DNA from: an uncultured Actinomycetota bacterium
GTDB lineage: Bacteria > Actinomycetota > Actinomycetes > CAVWCF01
Assembly: GCA_963753435.1 (NCBI GenBank)
Contig: CAVWCF010000001.1
Span: 736,001 to 800,000, forward strand
Reading direction: 5' to 3'
Length of the DNA: 64,000 nt
Shown here: in pieces, positions 2,126-9,950 of the stretch
How positions within the stretch are numbered: the first letter of the stretch is position 1
Layout of the letters: each line of letters starts with the position of its first letter
Position numbers and translations under genes: made by a program
Notes under the pieces: generated by a model
What the model was told of the DNA's origin: nothing
What the model saw: only the letters and a program-made list of their open reading frames with translations
Databases searched by the model: none

Positions 2126-2335
2126 CTAAGCCTTCTTGCCGAACCGCTTCTCGAACGCGGCCACGCGGCCACCGGTGTCCAGCAACTTCTGCTTGCCGGT
2201 GTAGAAGGGGTGGCACTGGCTGCAGACCTCGACATGGATGATGCCGTTGGCAGCCGTGCTACGCGTCGTGAAGGTGCTGCCACAGGTGCAGGTCACCTCG
2301 GTCACCGCGTAATCGGGGTGGATATCGGACTTCAC
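2126..2335 (-). CDS. rpmE: 50S ribosomal protein L31 (zinc-binding, C+ type)
   Basis: MKSDIHPDY...CTCG...[13 protein letters not shown]. Confidence 0.98.
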
Positions 2336-2438: not shown

Positions 2439-3677
2439 TCAGGCCGAGATGAGCTCGGATCGCACCGCCGGGGCGGTGCGGGTGCCCCACCGGTTGTCCG
2501 TGAGCGATCCCAGCGCCCGTAGCCGGACGGGGATGAGCAGGGCCGCGTGCAGGAAGCCGTACAGGACGAAGAAGAAGAACTTCGGGTTGCGGGTTCGGTA
2601 CAGGGCGTAAAGGCAGTGCAGCACCGCCATGATCGCGATGACCGTGAAGTAGAGGACGAGCACCTCGGGCCCGTAGAGGAAGGCCCGCACAATCGTGGCT
2701 GTGACGGCGATGGTGAGCAGCAGCGGCAGGAGGGCCTGAATGAAGACCTCGGTCGCCATCACTCGGGAAAGCCGAGGCAGGAACGACAGGGTCCACAGCA
2801 GCTCGCGGTAGTAGGACTTGTTCCAGCGCAACTGCTGGGTCAAGTAGCTGCGAATGTTCGTTGGCGCGCTGGTGATGCAGTGCGCCTGCGGCACGAAGAC
2901 CGTGCGGAAGCCTTCACCAAGCACCAGGTTCGTCAGATGTCGATCATCGCCGAACGTGCACGGAACTCCGCGGAAGGTCTGGCTGACATACCGGGGCCAG
3001 ACCCGACCCAGCACGTCGCGCCGGTACACGGAGAACGGACCGGAACAGCAGAGCACCGCGCCGAACAAGGAGTGGGCGGCCCGCTCCTGGTTGAACGCGA
3101 CCCAGTAGCGCATGTCGATGAGCAGGGTGAGCAGGTTCGTCCGTGCGTTGGAAACGCGGACATCGCCGGTGACCGCGCCAACGCGGGCATCGGCGAACGG
3201 CTCAATGATCGTCCGGACCCCGTCCGGAGCGATCTGGGTGTCCGAGTCGATGGTCATGATCAGGTCGCCGCAGACGTGCGGCAGCGCAGCGCTTTGGGCG
3301 TGGCGCTTGCCCCGATTCACGTCCGGCAGGTGGATCGTCCAGCCCGGCCGAGCCGAGTACTCGCTAAGCAGCGGTATCAGGTCCTCGCGGTTCGGTGACA
3401 GGTCATCGACCACGTGCACCTCGATCACGCCCGGGTAGTCCTGTGCCAGCAAGGACTCAAAGCACAGCCGCAAGTCATCCGGGTGCTCGTTGTAGACGGG
3501 GATGATGACCGATACGACGGGCCAGGATCCGTGCCACTTCGGCCGTTGCAGCGTTCGCCGCCAGGATCGGTGCGCCATGCCGACCTGCAGGACGAAGTGC
3601 GACACCACCAACACGGTGTAGACGATCAACAGGCCGTCGAGGAAGTTCTTGACCACGGTGGCCAGTAGGCCGCTCAC
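2439..3677 (-). CDS. Processive GT2 glycosyltransferase, NodC / hyaluronan-synthase (HasA)-like
   Basis: IIPVYNE, VVDD, NRGKRHAQ, IDSDT, ERAAHSLFGAVLCCSGP, GDDRHLTN, QQLRWNKS and C-terminal WGTR; one N-terminal and several C-terminal TM segments. Confidence 0.9.
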   Translation of the reverse strand: MSGLLATVVKNFLDGLLIVYTVLVVSHFVLQVGMAHRSWRRTLQRPKWHGSWPVVSVIIPVYNEHPDDLRLCFESLLAQDYPGVIEVHVVDDLSPNREDLIPLLSEYSARPGWTIHLPDVNRGKRHAQSAALPHVCGDLIMTIDSDTQIAPDGVRTIIEPFADARVGAVTGDVRVSNARTNLLTLLIDMRYWVAFNQERAAHSLFGAVLCCSGPFSVYRRDVLGRVWPRYVSQTFRGVPCTFGDDRHLTNLVLGEGFRTVFVPQAHCITSAPTNIRSYLTQQLRWNKSYYRELLWTLSFLPRLSRVMATEVFIQALLPLLLTIAVTATIVRAFLYGPEVLVLYFTVIAIMAVLHCLYALYRTRNPKFFFFVLYGFLHAALLIPVRLRALGSLTDNRWGTRTAPAVRSELISA

Positions 3678-5347
3678 GACGCGATCCCTGAGGCGCTAAT
3701 CAGATCCCGCGCTCGCTGCAGCAGCGCTTCCTGCGGATCGGTATCACCGACGACAACGCTGGTGCCAATAACCCGACCACCAACGCTCAGTGGGCCCGAT
3801 TGCGAACTCGCCATCAGCACCACGCGCTCGTGTCGGATCACGTCGCCGTTTCGGAACGGCCACTCCCAGGAGAGGACGTGCCACGTGCTGCCGCTAGGAG
3901 TACGGAACTCGTAACGCTGGCCGGCGACCCCGCCCAGATCCAACTCCTCGTCGGCGAGCACCTCGTTGTCATGGAACTGGTAGCAGGACGCCAGCGAGTG
4001 TGTCTGCAGTGCCCGTAGGGAATCGGTTGTGATCGAGTCCATCCAGATCGTCGGTGTCGAGGCGGCTGTCGCGCCTACGCCCACCTGCGGCCGGAACTCA
4101 TACCGCATCCAGCGCGAGTCCCCGCCGAAGTAGGCGCGTGCCCATTCCTCTTCACCAAGAGGTGTCACGGACTCCGCGGTGGCCGACATCCGCTGCACTT
4201 GTTCGGCGGCGCTGACGGTGACCGGACCACCCGCGGCGGCACTGCCGCGCATCTGGCCGACGGTGGCGATGTTCACGGCCATGATCAAGGCAGCACCGGT
4301 TCCCAGCGCTAGGAGCCGCAGGACGAGTTGGCGCCGGTCCGGTGCCCCATCTCGCGGTAGCTGCGTGAAGAGGGGGTTGTCGCCGAACCCGGCCTCTCGG
4401 ATGGGCCGCCGAACCAGCCCCATCGGGCCGGCCAAAGCGAGCATGAGCAGGAAGGCCGCGTTCAGGGCCAGCAACCCGGCGACCGGGTGCACCAACCCGA
4501 TCGCGGCATCCTCACCGACAGCTCGACCGATCACCAGGATCGCGACGATTCGGACAACGTTGGCCATGAAGACGACCAACAGGCCCAGTGCGAACCAGGT
4601 GAGCCGGGCCCGGCCGGTGCCACGCAGAACGCTGAAGGATGCGGTGGCCACGACCGCGAAGGCCGCCATGCCCCCCATCCCCGAGCAGGCGCTGGAAACG
4701 ACGACATCGAAGGCGCCATCCGGGGCAGGCACCGTGAGCCGCAGGTCACCCTCCGCGGGCACCGGTGTGGCGATCGGGAAGACGTCCAGAACGCCGCGCA
4801 CGGCCACGCCGGTTGCATTGGTCAACCCGGTGCTGACCAGTTCCAGCAGCGCCGCGTAGGGGACGGGCCAGGCCAAGGCGAGCACGGCGATGGACGGGGC
4901 GAAAGCGAGCAGTGACCGCACCCCGAACAGGAGCGTGAAGGCCGCAACTGCGGTGAACGGCAGCAACAGCAGGTCGAAGCGCAGCACGGCGAAGAAGTTG
5001 CCGGTGCCATGCCAGGACAGCAGCAAGCCGCCGGAAACCAGCAGGGCGCACACGGCGGCCACGTACCAGTCCGCCTTGCCGTGGCGGGCGGTGGAGACGA
5101 AGGGGTGGCGGCGAATGGCCACAACGCTCAGCCCCACCGCGATCAACGGAACGATGGCCAGTTCCGCCAGGGGCGACTGGTACTGCCACGAAGCCAGCAT
5201 CGTCGCGAATGAAGCCGCGCCGGCCGCGGCCACGGCCACCCAGGCGAGCAGCAGGCGCAAGTGCGCCGGGATCAGGTGGGTCGCGGGCGGGTGCAGACTC
5301 AGCCCCGATCGCGGAGGCGTGATCGTGACGTCACGCATCACTGACAC
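3674..5347 (-). CDS. Exosortase/archaeosortase-family protein with C-terminal EpsI-like extracytoplasmic domain
   Basis: Multi-TM N-terminal region with the catalytic-type Cys (VSSACSGMG), Arg (ANVVRI) and His (LVHPVAG). C-terminal soluble domain has HSLASCY, like the EpsI H-x-P-x-x-C-Y motif. GGAGG RBS upstream. Confidence 0.85.
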   Translation of the reverse strand: MSVMRDVTITPPRSGLSLHPPATHLIPAHLRLLLAWVAVAAAGAASFATMLASWQYQSPLAELAIVPLIAVGLSVVAIRRHPFVSTARHGKADWYVAAVCALLVSGGLLLSWHGTGNFFAVLRFDLLLLPFTAVAAFTLLFGVRSLLAFAPSIAVLALAWPVPYAALLELVSTGLTNATGVAVRGVLDVFPIATPVPAEGDLRLTVPAPDGAFDVVVSSACSGMGGMAAFAVVATASFSVLRGTGRARLTWFALGLLVVFMANVVRIVAILVIGRAVGEDAAIGLVHPVAGLLALNAAFLLMLALAGPMGLVRRPIREAGFGDNPLFTQLPRDGAPDRRQLVLRLLALGTGAALIMAVNIATVGQMRGSAAAGGPVTVSAAEQVQRMSATAESVTPLGEEEWARAYFGGDSRWMRYEFRPQVGVGATAASTPTIWMDSITTDSLRALQTHSLASCYQFHDNEVLADEELDLGGVAGQRYEFRTPSGSTWHVLSWEWPFRNGDVIRHERVVLMASSQSGPLSVGGRVIGTSVVVGDTDPQEALLQRARDLISASGIAS

Positions 5348-5377
5348 CTCCGCAGGCCGCTACTCCGATCGGATGAA

Positions 5378-5405
5378 TCTTCGGCTCCTGAGGCACCTGA
5401 CTTGA
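5378..5405 (-). promoter_or_regulatory. Putative sigma-28 (FliA/WhiG)-type promoter for the exosortase-GT genes
   Basis: Minus strand TCAA-N16-GCCGAAGA versus the sigma-28/WhiG consensus TAAA-N15/16-GCCGATAA. Confidence 0.55.
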
Positions 5406-5408
5406 CTG

Positions 5409-5909
5409 TCAGATGGCTGATTGCGAACCGACTGCCCCGCGGCGCCGCAGCCCGAACCAGGCCGCGGCGGTGAGCAGCATCGAGGCGGGCAGCAGGATCG
5501 CGATCGGGGCTTCCGGAAGCTGCGCTGGCGGAGCACACGACGAGACGGTCACCCGGCCCGAGGTGTTGCTTGTGGCTGAGGTCACATCGTCTGCCCGGAC
5601 CCGCCACGCCTTGGCGTCCTTGTGTGCGGACACGTTCAATGCGTAGGCGTAGTCGGTAACCCCGGGCACGGTGGTGACCAGCTGCTGGACCGAGGTGTCC
5701 GACCAGCCGGAGTCCTGCCGCTGCAACGTAAGCACGATCTGCGACCCGGACGGGAAGTTACGCAGCGAGATGGTCCCGCTCAGGGAGTCACCCGCACAGC
5801 TTGCGCCCACGGAACGGACCTCTTTGGGTGCCGCCCAGGCGCTTGCCGGCGCGAACAGGGCGAGCGCAGCGACGATGCCAGCCAGGGCCAACGTGAACGC
5901 ACGTCGCAT
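5409..5909 (-). CDS. Secreted protein with PEP-CTERM-like C-terminal sorting signal (predicted exosortase substrate)
   Basis: ATG at 5909 with GGAGG 8 nt upstream. Signal peptide MRRAFTLALAGIVAALALFAPASAWA, Ser/Thr-rich body with two Cys, tail LPEAP-IAILLPASMLLTAAAWFGL-RRR. Confidence 0.8.
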   Translation of the reverse strand: MRRAFTLALAGIVAALALFAPASAWAAPKEVRSVGASCAGDSLSGTISLRNFPSGSQIVLTLQRQDSGWSDTSVQQLVTTVPGVTDYAYALNVSAHKDAKAWRVRADDVTSATSNTSGRVTVSSCAPPAQLPEAPIAILLPASMLLTAAAWFGLRRRGAVGSQSAI

Positions 5910-5946
5910 CCGCGGCACCTCCAAAACCTGTCGCAACTCTCTGCAG

Positions 5947-5974
5947 TTGTCGGCGCGACGGCTGCGGGGCTTGA
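5947..5974 (-). promoter_or_regulatory. Putative sigma-28 (FliA/WhiG)-type promoter for the sorted-protein gene
   Basis: Minus strand TCAA-N16-GCCGACAA, about 37 nt upstream of the ATG at 5909. Confidence 0.6.
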
Positions 5975-6046: not shown

Positions 6047-7819
6047 TTACTCCTCGTCACCGTTCATTCCCGGCGTGGTCTGGGCCACGCTCATCAGGAA
6101 CTGACGGTTGGTGGGTGCCTCGCGCAGCTTGTTCAGCAGCAACTCAATGGCCTGCTGTGTCTCCAGTGCATGCAGCACGCGCCGCAGTTTCCAGGTGACC
6201 TTCAACTCGTCGGAGCCCATGAGGAGCTCTTCCTTGCGGGTGCCGGAGGAGTCCACATCCACGGCCGGGAAGATGCGCTTGTCGGCCAGCCGCCGGTCCA
6301 GCTTGAGCTCCATGTTTCCGGTGCCCTTGAACTCCTCGAAGATGACCTCGTCCATCTTTGACCCGGTCTCCACCAGCGCGGTGGCCAGCACCGTTAGGGA
6401 GCCACCGTTCTCGATGTTGCGGGCCGCACCGAAGAAGCGCTTGGGCGGGTACAGGGCGCTGGAGTCGACGCCACCGGACAGGATTCGCCCGGACGCGGGT
6501 GCCGACAGGTTGTAGGCCCGCCCCAGGCGGGTCATGGAGTCCAAAAGAACTACGACGTCGTGGCCCATCTCGACCAGCCGCTTGGCGCGTTCGATCGCCA
6601 ACTCGGCAACCGTGGTGTGGTCATCGGCAGGACGGTCGAAGGTCGAGGAGATGACCTCACCCTTGACGGTGCGCTGCATGTCGGTGACTTCTTCGGGACG
6701 CTCGTCCACGAGGACCACCATCAGGTGGACCTCCGGGTTGTTCTCGGTGATCGCGTTGGCGATGGACTGCAGCACCATCGTCTTGCCGGCCTTCGGGGGC
6801 GAGACGATCAGGCCGCGCTGACCCTTGCCGATCGGCGCCACGAGGTCGATGACTCGAGTGGTCAAGTCGCTGCTGGCCGTCTCCAACCGCAGCCGTTCGT
6901 TCGGGTACAGCGGCGTCAACTTGCTGAAGTCAACTCGGTCCCGGACCCCGTCCGGGGCCAGGCCGTTGACCGTGTCCACCCGGACGAGCGGGTTGAACTT
7001 CTCGCGGCGCTCACCCTCGCGCGGCTGTCGCACGGCCCCGGTGAGCGCATCGCCCTTGCGCAGCCCCATGCGGCGCACGAGGCCCATCGGGACATAGCAG
7101 TCGTCCGGGCCCGGCAGGTAGCCGCTGGTACGCAGGAATCCGTAGTTCTCCCGGATGTCGAGGATGCCGGCGACGGGCACCAGCACGTCGTCCTCGCCCA
7201 GAACTGGCTCATCGTCGCGACCTCGGCGGGCGCCCCGATCGCGGTCGCGGTCTCGGTCCCGACCCCGGTCGCGGTCACGGCCACGACGGCGCCGGCGGTT
7301 ACCGCGGTCGTCATCACGGGGGCCGCGGGAGTCGTCGTCGCGGGGGCCACGGGAGTCGTCGTCGCGGTCACGACCACGGTCCCGGTCGCCACGGTCGGAC
7401 TGGTTGCGGTCTGACTGGTTGCGGTCGGACTGGTTGCGGTCGGACTGGTTGCGGTCGCGGCCGGACTGCTGGCGGCCGGATTGCCCGTCGTTTCCAGCCT
7501 CGCGCTCACGTCCGCGCGGCCGGCTGGCCGCAGTCGACGGCTCATCGCCGGCAGGGGCGGACTCGCTGCTGCGGGAGTCGGTGCGGGCGGAGTCACGGCG
7601 TCCGGACTCGCTGCGCCCTGATTCGCTGCGCGCGGACTCGCTGCGACCAGAGTCCCGGCTGCCGCCGGCCTCGATGGCCGCAATCAGGTCGCCCTTGCGG
7701 AGCCGCTTGGCGCCAGCGATCCCCAGACCGCTGGCCATCTCCTGCAACTCGGGCAACTTCTTGCTGGACAGAGAGCCGCCGGACTTCGATCCGCGGGTCT
7801 CAGTATTGGTGTCGCTCAC
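6047..7819 (-). CDS. rho: Transcription termination factor Rho with N-terminal low-complexity insertion
   Basis: [41 protein letters not shown]. Confidence 0.98.
7307..7367. repeat. 24-bp tandem repeat (about 2.5 copies) encoding RDDDSRGP in the Rho insertion
   Basis: gtcgtcatcacgggggccgcggga / gtcgtcgtcgcgggggccacggga / gtcgtcgtcgcgg. Confidence 0.8.
7397..7456. repeat. 15-bp tandem repeat x4 encoding DRNQS in the Rho insertion
   Basis: (g/t)gactggttgcggtc repeated four times. Confidence 0.9.
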
Positions 7820-7980: not shown

Positions 7981-8878
7981 TCAGGCGTCCTCGACAACCG
8001 CCCCGCGTGCCGGGGAAAGCACCCGCGCCGCGACCCCTTCCGGTGCCGTTGCGGCAATCGCGTCCAACTCGCCGGCGGCAGTGCTCAGCACCAGCACAGT
8101 GGGGCCGGCCCCGGAGATGAACGCAGCATGCCCGGCCGATCGCAATCTCTGCACCAGCACCATCGATTCGGGGTACGCGCCGGTACGAGCGTCCTGGTGC
8201 AACCGGTCGGCAGTGGCCGCGAAGAGCAGACCAGGTTTGGCGGTCATGGCGATCGGCAGGAGAGCGGCCCGGGCCGCGTTGGCAGTGGCGGTCTCGAACG
8301 GGACCGCCGCGGGAAGCAGCGCACGCGCGACTTCGGTGGAAACCTCCACCGCTGGGATCAGCGCAAGCGCGCGGATCTGCTCGTGCACCGGCAAGGAAAT
8401 CGCCTCGCTTGCGCCGGCCTCGGACCACGCCAGGGTGAATCCGCCGAGAAGGCAGGCGGCCACGTTGTCCGGATGACCCTCCAACTCCGCCGCCAGCGGG
8501 AGAGCCGATTCCGGGGAGGTGTCCGCACCGGCCAAGTGCCGGGCCAGCAGGACGCCGCAGGTGATGGCCGCGGCGGAAGACCCGAGACCACGTCCGTGCG
8601 GGATCCGGTTGGTGGCCCGAAGCCGTAGGCCGGGGACGGCAAAGCCCAAATCCGCCGCTGTCCGTTGCAGGGTGGCCACAACCAGATGCCGATCGTCCAA
8701 CGGCACGGTGTCGGCGCCCTCGCCGACGACTCTCCACGTCAATCTGGTCCGCGATGACTTCGACCGCCACCTCGTCGACGAGGTCCAGCGCCAGTCCGGC
8801 TACGTCGAAACCCGGGCCCAGGTTCGCGCTGGTCGCCGGGGCGCGGACGACAGCGCGGGCGCCGATCGGCAGGTCCAC
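7981..8878 (-). CDS. thrB: Homoserine kinase, interrupted by a +1 frameshift near 8731
   Basis: N-terminal PATSANLGPGFD is in one frame from GTG 8878; IPHGRGLGSS, EGHPDNVA and ISGAGPT are in another. Junction reads GAC GTG GAG [A] GTC GTC GGC GAG. Confidence 0.92.
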
Positions 8879-8879
8879 C

Positions 8880-9950
8880 TCAGGCGAGGTCAAGCAGGCT
8901 GGCTGCCGCGGCAGCGTCGATGGGCACCGTTTCCGGCTGCGGCGCACCCGCGATCGCCCACTCCGGGTCCTTCAACCCGTTGCCGGTGACCGTGCAGACG
9001 ATGCGCTGCCCCGGCTCCACCAGGCCCTCGGCATGTGCCTGCAGCAACCCGGCAACGCTGGCCGCGCTGGCTGGCTCAACGAACACGCCTTCGGTGCGAG
9101 CCAAGAGCCGATAGGCGGACAAGATCGCCCGGTCGGTGACAGCGTCAATTCGCCCGCCCGACTCGTCGCGCGCAGCTTCGGCCTGCTGCCACGAGGCCGG
9201 GTTGCCGATGCGGATGGCCGTGGCGATGGTCGACGGCTTGGCGACCGGCTCCCCGCGCACGATCGGCGCCGCACCAGCCGCCTGGAAACCCCACATCCGC
9301 GGGCGCGCGGAGATGCCGTCGTTGGCGTATTCGCAGTACCCCTTCCAGTACGCGGTGATGTTGCCGGCGTTACCGACCGGCAGGACGTGGATGTCCGGCG
9401 CCTGGCCCAACCCGTCGACGATCTCGAACGCGGCGGTCTTCTGGCCCTCGATGCGATCCGGGTTCACCGAGTTGACCAGCGCGACCGGATAGTTCTCCGA
9501 CAGGTCGCGCGCCAAGGTGAGGCAGTCGTCGAAGTTGCCGTCCACCTGCAGCAGGCGTGCGCCGTGCGCCAACGCCTGCGACATCTTGCCGAGTGCGATC
9601 TTGCCTTGCGGGACCAGAACGGCGCAGACCATTCCCGCCCGCACGGCGTAAGCGGCCGCGGACGCCGAAGTGTTGCCCGTCGAAGCGCAGATGACGGCCT
9701 GGGCCCCCGCTTGTGCAGCCTTGGAGATGGCCATAGTCATGCCGCGGTCCTTGAACGAACCGGTGGGGTTGGCCCCCTCTACCTTCAGGTGGACCTCGCA
9801 CCCGGTGCGCTCAGACAGGACCTGGGCCGGCACCAGCGGGGTGCCGCCTTCACGCAACGTGATGACGGGCGTGTCCGCGGTCACCGGCAACCGATCCCGG
9901 TACTCCTCGATGACACCTCGCCACAGGTGCCTGGTCATTGTCGTGGTCAT
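8880..9950 (-). CDS. thrC: Threonine synthase
   Basis: [10 protein letters not shown] (PLP lysine), ASTGNT, PVGNAGN. Confidence 0.97.

Follow-up and report, generated by a model that had tools for sequence, protein, structure and literature searches.

The locus analyzed here raises the question of what is made by a family 2 glycosyltransferase (GT2) that resembles both rhizobial NodC and class I hyaluronan synthases (HAS), and why its gene is placed between two host genes, rho and rpmE, of an uncultured Actinomycetota bacterium. Within the window, i.e., the whole stretch of DNA that was analyzed (64,000 nucleotides), the following features were distinguished:

2126..2335, minus strand: rpmE (L31), host gene, downstream flank that marks the site
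2439..3677, minus strand: HAS/NodC-family processive-type GT2, 412 aa, GTG start, intact ORF
2478..2489, minus strand: WGTR gating-loop motif (WLSR or WMSR in NodC), from alignment
2823..2837, minus strand: QQLRW (QxxRW) motif, from translation and alignment
2940..2951, minus strand: GDDR motif with the predicted catalytic base D245 (GEDR in NodC), from alignment
3108..3110, minus strand: codon for R190, aligned with XlHAS1 R287 and CvHAS R247, near GlcA in the channel
3674..5338, minus strand: exosortase of no named subfamily (PF09721, TIGR04178)
4487..4687, minus strand: putative catalytic triad region, C221 (CxG), R266 (NxxR) and H287 (HxxxG), numbered from 5347
5409..5909, minus strand: small secreted target protein, 166 aa, ATG at 5909 behind GGAGGT
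5409..5519, minus strand: VPEAP-type C-terminal sorting signal (LPEAP, membrane helix, Arg cluster), from the sequence
6047..7819, minus strand: rho, host gene, upstream flank that marks the site

The three genes between rho and rpmE are co-oriented, in the order tagged secreted protein, exosortase and GT2, and the start codon of the last one overlaps the stop codon of the exosortase gene by 4 nt (GTGA). The original prediction had stated that no deacetylase, acyltransferase or UDP-glucose dehydrogenase gene is adjacent, and this is correct, as the neighbors are the exosortase, its target, rho and rpmE. The 52 genome loci retrieved with the GT2 include 16 with an exosortase gene upstream, i.e., all 15 top-ranked ones (L001–L015, from Actinomycetes and Gaiellales) and L023 of Chloroflexota; a homolog of the target gene was found in 14. 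Loci L020 and L021 (51% and 50% identity) have no exosortase, and L024 was too short on that side. The reciprocal test used 63 metagenome loci found by the exosortase alignment alone, which include close kin and hence are not independent; the GT2 gene lay directly downstream in 52 of the 52 loci with at least 600 nt of room, and a tag gene directly upstream in 34/34 with room, loci too short on a given side being left out. The genome of the window (2.17 Mb, 98% complete) carries one exosortase and one tag, which fits the dedicated one-to-one exosortase-target systems described in a recent preprint (bioRxiv 10.1101/2023.06.07.544157). Instead of standing alone, the GT2 gene is the obligatory third member of a cassette for exosortase-based protein sorting, and this membership offers the best hint at its function.

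The distribution of the cassette is patchy. The GT2 was found at an E-value of 1e-30 in none of 40 relatives, and in two genomes of the same family (88% and 58% complete) rho and rpmE are adjacent with nothing between them. The rho-rpmE site is occupied by the cassette also in loci L001, L002 and L014. Recent horizontal transfer was considered and rejected, on the basis of the cassette GC3 of 0.82–0.88 (flanks, 0.81–0.89) and of the reuse of this site in these three loci. Across 401 genomes of the phylum, 26 encode a GT2 homolog at E 1e-40; in the 19 new loci fetched from them, this exosortase was present in none within 1.5 kb. A scan of the locus for promoters and terminators found nothing. 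In four metatranscriptomes 6–11% of words were recovered and short contigs span parts of all three genes; such contigs show neither transcription, nor strand, nor level.

Some irregularities were also observed. The thrB (homoserine kinase) gene at 7981–8900 of the window seems split across two frames near 8740–8760, possibly by an assembly error, and the exosortase gene of L011 (4338–6004) and the GT2 gene of L014 (6001–7234) are broken by frameshifts, which are likely assembly errors as well. In L001 (613–2316), L002 (5983–7686), P0006, P0007, P0010 and others, a response-regulator receiver domain is fused to the C-terminus of the GT2, and genes for GAF-histidine kinases come next; this arrangement suggests control of the GT2 by phosphorylation.

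The exosortase gene probably starts at ATG 5338, behind a GGAGGTG ribosome site, while its longest ORF begins at GTG 5347. The protein (about 555 aa) consists of approximately eight membrane helices, a ninth helix and an extracellular C-terminal domain, and it scores above the family cut-offs (PF09721, 67.6 vs. 25.7 bits; TIGR04178, 47.4 vs. 23). The CxG, NxxR and HxxxG motifs, which define the putative triad of the family (PMC1569441), are intact, and all six residues are invariant in 14 of 14 aligned homologs. The window's protein falls below the cut-offs of all listed named subfamilies (XrtA–Y); for the other 13 members this comparison concerns the best E-values only. The additional C-terminal domain has a predicted PsbP/DcrB-like fold with middling Z-scores (6.0–6.7), for which Foldseek returned no match at E 0.001. 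No match was obtained between this C-terminal part and the EpsI model TIGR02914; its "H..CY.FH" motif is one that we take to resemble EpsI.

The target protein has a signal peptide, a small beta-rich domain with two invariant cysteines and a C-terminal sorting tag, which in the window reads LPEAP, followed by a membrane helix and RRR. All elements of a sorting signal, i.e., the motif, the membrane helix, the basic cluster, the signal peptide and the adjacent enzyme, are present. Among 38 tag matches, 26 were VPEAP, 11 were close variants and one was unparsed. None of the named CTERM models fits the target (the best was PepA, with E 0.005 in two of ten members), and an Atlas search with one target homolog gave unnamed clusters only, all under 0.9. 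The Chloroflexota-type targets (like that of L023; P0315, P0317, P0319–P0331) share the tag and the flanking cysteines with the actinobacterial ones and have a different body.

Pfam matches of the third protein were GT2 families, and its top NCBIfam model was that of NodC (TIGR04242; 345.8 bits, E 3e-103), with a score well under the cut-off of 550, which is strict, since an Azorhizobium NodC-type protein reaches 502.6. The PgaC/IcaA model TIGR03937 gave 81.4 bits (cut-off 422.3). The top PDB matches were Chlorella-virus and Xenopus HAS (E 4e-48 to 4e-44); as the top match of NodC itself is also a HAS (117 bits vs. 167.5 for the window's GT2), this result does not discriminate between the two. 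The AlphaFold model (pLDDT 93.5) was likewise matched first to HAS folds (TM 0.80–0.87), before cellulose and chitin synthases. The family-model scores support the assignment of this GT2 to the NodC/HAS family, and to neither PgaC/IcaA nor cellulose synthase. Both the model and the hydropathy profile indicate one N-terminal and two to three C-terminal membrane helices, i.e., the three-span topology of NodC, an enzyme described as having no channel (PMC4132801). The full set of HAS channel-forming helices is absent, as are the extra helices of viral and vertebrate HAS: 12 residues follow the WGTR motif, compared with 91–97 in giant-virus HAS-like proteins, and there is one N-terminal span, compared with two in Bacillus cereus HasA. 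The predicted complex of the GT2 with the exosortase reached a median of 0.29, against a mark of 0.32, a value that speaks neither for nor against an interaction.

More information was gained from individual residues. All motifs quoted in the original prediction (QDYPG, VVDD, NRGKRHAQ, LIDMRYW, ERAAHS, QTFRG, GDDRHLTN, QQLRW, RWNKSYYRE and WGTR) are present, and in that respect its mixture of NodC and HAS signatures stands, but most of the "NodC-like" motifs proved common to the whole NodC/HAS family. Fifteen columns discriminate strictly between 8 NodC rows and 16 HAS-like ones (a set including one annotated HasA only, that of B. cereus), and at these the enzyme is less mixed: it has the HAS state at 12, the NodC state (e.g., DMEY, GEDR, RWARST, WLSR) at one and neither at two. 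Out of 86 residues conserved in NodC and rare in the HAS-like set, it has 13. The position 190 is arginine in 14/14 cassette GT2s, 120/120 nearest homologs, 7/7 ugd-adjacent relatives and B. cereus HasA, and, in general, in 162 of 176 other rows; glutamate is found there in all eight NodC and in the PgaC-like outgroup protein L084. It should be stressed that the whole family inherited the HAS-state residues from its ancestor, and thus they exclude NodC more firmly than they indicate hyaluronan synthesis.

In the alignment with XlHAS1 (8smm), the following residues correspond: R190 to R287, Y191 to Y288, R199 to R296, C210 to C307, D245 to D342, R246 to R343, R284 to R381, W285 to W382, S288 to S385, H27 to H72 and W397 to W491, and H354 occupies the position of K448. 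The GT2 has therefore equivalents of all three GlcA-contacting arginines of XlHAS1 (R287, R296 and R381), among which R190 alone differs from NodC, most of the mapped residues being shared with NodC as well. In XlHAS1, R287 and R296 lie near GlcA-2, their substitutions by alanine yield short oligomers, and activity needs the WGT loop (PMC11750622). The GT2 has all HAS motifs (DxD, GDDR, QxxRW and WGT(S/R)), the acceptor collar residues Y191, C210, W285 and S288, and equivalents of R341 and R348, reported as important in CvHAS (PMC12987647); neither the gating loop nor the channel arginines of processive synthases vary. Where SmNodC has R349, which is reported to act as a ruler of chain length, the clade is divided between R (60/120) and H (60/120).

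The phylogeny was reconstructed in five trees, built from subsets of 198 trimmed sequences (86, 58, 37 and 26 rows, and 34 recoded rows). Streptococcal HasA, CvHAS, XlHAS1 and Frankia NodC are absent from them; no canonical match to Frankia NodC was found in 36 genomes of the family reached, and no streptococcal HasA was recognized among 6 matches in 251 genomes. In all five trees NodC forms a tight clade (support 100 in those of 58, 37 and 26 rows) nested within the R190-bearing family, with the window's GT2 outside it, and the path to NodC leads via three environmental proteins having both R190 and GEDR (P0138, P0144 and P0145), which score 386–424 bits on the NodC model. On one side of the main split there are the cassette enzymes, a mostly uncharacterized sister group and NodC, and on the other B. 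cereus HasA and HAS1-like, giant-virus and ugd-linked rows; its support was 99 (mixture model, quick), 100/99 (LG, careful), 99 and 97. The cassette enzymes are thus apart from B. cereus HasA and the XlHAS1-like P0264, known HAS themselves being scattered. The presence of the high-GC actinobacterial L020, L021 and L039 on the other side argues against a pure composition bias. Dayhoff-6 recoding preserved the topology, with SH-aLRT/bootstrap values of only 85/28 for the full clade of cassette enzymes and NodC, 91/96 for the subclade of the window's GT2 with NodC and 99.7/100 for the larger clade that excludes HasA. The AU test (LG, 26 rows) rejected the grouping of NodC with the outgroup (p 0.003) and of the cassette enzymes with the HAS-like rows (p 0.024), both of which were named after earlier trees had been seen, and did not reject the cassette enzymes as a monophyletic group (p 0.57). 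The outgroup has a long branch, and its support is weak (72).

These trees favor, and do not prove, the derivation of NodC from a HAS-like ancestor near the cassette clade. The cassette enzymes are close relatives of NodC and not its immediate sister, and the lineage of this GT2 appears to lie close to the origin of NodC. A phylogeny was among the checks proposed in the original prediction, and the trees place the enzyme on the NodC side of the HAS-like family; the expectation that it could inform NodC/HAS evolution is supported. The origin of nodC was previously called "less certain" than that of nodA and nodB (PMC4447401), and a survey of chitin synthases included NodC and HAS as outgroups only, as far as its accessible part goes (PMC5122149).

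The remaining genome was screened for possible partners. No PF01522 (nodB-type) deacetylase was found in it, with the control being positive in 11 of 14 genomes; the NodA search gave no match, and neither did its control in any genome. Two nucleotide-sugar dehydrogenases are encoded, both far from the locus and both under the equivalog cut-offs, i.e., a TuaD-like UDP-glucose dehydrogenase (392 bits) and a UDP-HexNAc-dehydrogenase-like protein (L054), whose best matches are ManNAc dehydrogenases. The hasB and hasC genes typical of bacterial HAS operons are absent from the cassette, with a ugd-like gene located elsewhere. No dehydrogenase was detected beside the cassette loci in the 133 of 247 neighbor ORFs that were scanned, nor in the 28 largest neighbor clusters (partly scanned), and neither a flippase nor a nodIJ-like exporter gene recurs next to the cassette. 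A gene for a secreted right-handed beta-helix protein (pectate-lyase fold, weakly PL9-like), on the opposite strand, adjoins 12 of 79 cassette loci (L007, L023, L093, L096, L100, L104, L110, L123, L130, L132, L142 and L151) and was not found in the window's genome.

The best explanation, to which we would give an even chance, is that the GT2 makes a glucuronate-containing, hyaluronan-like surface glycan alongside one exosortase-anchored protein. Its basis was observed directly: the order of the genes, their strict co-occurrence, a single target and a single exosortase per genome, the intact triad and the HAS-state residues. The hyaluronan-like character of the product is suggested by the 12 of 15 HAS-state columns, R190, the match to HAS folds, the TuaD-like dehydrogenase of the genome, relatives beside UDP-sugar dehydrogenases and the hyaluronidase-domain gene of L031 (see below), and, weakly, by the beta-helix gene next to some cassette loci. 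Against it stand the NodC-like minimal topology, the lack of a dehydrogenase in the cassette, the position on the NodC side of the trees and the ancestral nature of the HAS states. B. cereus HasA is itself listed as a candidate in a review (PMC10939387).

According to this explanation, the donors would be UDP-GlcNAc and UDP-GlcA, the latter supplied via the dehydrogenase encoded elsewhere in the genome, and R190 and R199 would bind the carboxylate groups of the chain during its growth. Export of the glycan by the GT2 is possible. Since the monomer has only the three membrane spans of NodC, the chain might exit through a dimer or a partner-assisted pore; streptococcal HAS is thought to act as a dimer (PMC10939387). 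The exosortase would cut the sorting tag off the small secreted protein and likely anchor this protein at the cell surface beside the glycan, and the two may together build a matrix or coat on the surface, similarly to what has been proposed for PEP-CTERM/EpsH.

An unlikely alternative, which nevertheless comes next, is that the same exosortase cassette serves another acidic polymer, such as alternating Glc-GlcA or an N-acetyl-hexosaminuronate chain. The pneumococcal type 3 capsule is an alternating Glc-GlcA polymer. R190 and R199 argue for a carboxylate, not for a particular partner sugar, the genome also has the UDP-HexNAc-dehydrogenase-like gene, and the clade is just 31–40% identical to HasA and the giant-virus HAS-like rows; however, the kin on both sides, NodC and HAS, use GlcNAc, and the acceptor collar residues of HAS are kept. 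Slightly less probable still is a short oligosaccharide only, presumably lipid-linked, that would anchor or decorate the exosortase target, with no free polymer formed. A three-span topology without a full channel, the strict 1:1:1 coupling with the GTGA overlap, the company of distant GT2s with other dedicated exosortases (XrtG, and XrtP/XrtS at L172) and the lipid anchoring of archaeosortase targets (bioRxiv 10.1101/2023.06.07.544157) are consistent with such a product, but the invariant gating loop and channel arginines are those of processive synthases, no flippase gene recurs among the neighbors, and lactococcal relatives with this topology have ugd as their only companion, in the manner of capsule operons.

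Improbable, and the weakest of these readings, is a NodC-like GlcNAc homopolymerase producing chitin or chito-oligosaccharides: NodC is the best named family, it scores higher against the GT2 (240–276 bits) than B. cereus HasA (232) or a giant-virus HAS-like protein (196), the tree side, the topology and the lack of ugd in the cassette agree with it, and HAS enzymes are able to make chitin oligomers (PMC10939387), but only one of 15 columns is in the NodC state, R replaces E at 190, the PF01522 deacetylase was not found in the genome, a nodIJ-like exporter gene does not recur beside the cassette, and the lactococcal ugd-linked relatives (352 bits) outscore every NodC. Consequently, of the products listed in the original prediction (chito-oligosaccharide, hyaluronan or a novel polymer), the first is not supported as the leading option, given the HAS-state residues and the lack of a nodB-type deacetylase among the genes found, and on the same grounds neither is the view of the gene as a Frankia-like nod gene.

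With class I HAS (CvHAS, XlHAS1 and B. cereus HasA) the GT2 shares the fold, DxD, GDDR, QxxRW, the WGT gating loop, both channel-entry arginines and the H72 equivalent, but it has fewer membrane helices, no hasB/hasC in the operon, a separate tree branch and an obligate pairing with an exosortase and its target. With rhizobial and Frankia NodC it shares the size, the three-span topology, 38–43% identity and the side of the main split, and differs in being far below the TIGR04242 cut-off, HAS-state at 12/15 columns, without a nodB-type gene found in the genome and outside the NodC clade.

The layout of tag, exosortase and GT2 is already known, with distant GT2s. In the XrtG/Firmicu-CTERM system of Firmicutes (TIGR03110, TIGR03111), one locus likewise contains GT2 genes together with a dedicated exosortase and a single target that carries a tag (PMC12854382), but the window's proteins score only 67.3 bits (GT2; cut-off 363.95) and 20 bits (exosortase; cut-off 103) on its models, and the tag is different; no TIGR03111 member was found in 81 genomes. 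The actinobacterial XrtP/XrtS locus L172 (PVV-CTERM protein, NF053846 GT2 and XrtS) has the three-gene layout in the same phylum. Its GT2, however, is 23% identical over 208 aa (the window's GT2 gives 15 bits on NF053846, cut-off 520), its gene order and tag differ, and its exosortase is of the type of about 200 aa, compared with about 555 aa and an extra domain in the cassette, so the pairing of GT2 and exosortase appears to have arisen separately. Similarly to PEP-CTERM/EpsH (XrtA), the cassette has an eight-helix exosortase with CxG, NxxR and HxxxG, a PEP-like tag and a linkage to polysaccharide genes, but it differs in having one target rather than many, a host that lacks an outer membrane, no match to the EpsI model and one synthase in place of a large EPS locus. 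A literature search, covering listings, abstracts and few subscription papers, returned in these sources no account of this cassette, nor any report that NodC nests among enzymes of this kind. The cassette is a well-conserved and apparently undescribed variant of dedicated exosortase-GT2 systems, with a HAS-type synthase related to the NodC stem.

Several observations concern more distant relatives of the GT2. Those of 33–45% identity often adjoin a UDP-sugar dehydrogenase gene (L028, L030, L033, L034, L041, L043 and L059). In Lactococcus and related genomes (L028, L030, L059, L075–L078), the GT2s are 42–45% identical to that of the window, one is located on a plasmid among IS elements, and a UDP-glucose dehydrogenase gene adjoins in the three that were checked, possibly making an unrecognized hasAB-like capsule pair. 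In L031 (Saccharimonadales MAG), a gene for a 649-aa protein with the phage-type hyaluronidase HylP domain (4010–5959; PF07212, 106.7 bits) overlaps the start of a HAS-like GT2 gene, whose product is 43% identical to the window's GT2. A related GT2 group with altered motifs (L153–L164, family f52; matches in 14 of 17 genomes) is commonly found beside a short-chain dehydrogenase or a Crp regulator and a large TPR regulator, and exosortases are absent from its vicinity. Distant actinobacterial homologs (32–36%; L166, L167, L168, L169 and L171) are located beside a UDP-sugar dehydrogenase and/or polysaccharide deacetylase gene, and in L168 the deacetylase lies within the same ORF. Finally, in L049 (79–12795, Omnitrophota MAG) a HAS-like GT2 segment is placed inside an open frame of >4200 codons.

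The anatomy of the cassette is solid; what it makes, and how, is inferred. The finding bears on the attachment partner of exosortases and on the reason why GT2s travel with them, as the cassette constitutes a minimal system of three genes, which can be reconstituted in a laboratory host. If its product is hyaluronan-like, HAS-type chemistry would extend to uncultured, free-living Actinomycetota and Chloroflexota, with a compact synthase. The graded series from the cassette enzymes via the intermediates with R190 and GEDR to NodC makes a switch between an acidic polymer and a chitin oligomer testable by few substitutions. A bolder and rather doubtful proposal joins both aspects: the exosortase-linked synthases may be the living HAS-like grade that gave rise to NodC, by an Arg-to-Glu change at the channel entrance and the loss of the GDDR and WGTR states, and their hyaluronan-type glycan may be used by the exosortase, directly or on a lipid, as the anchor of its target. 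If true, this would mean that a bacterial surface protein is anchored by a glycan, and it would provide a route, open to testing, by which Nod-factor synthesis could have originated.
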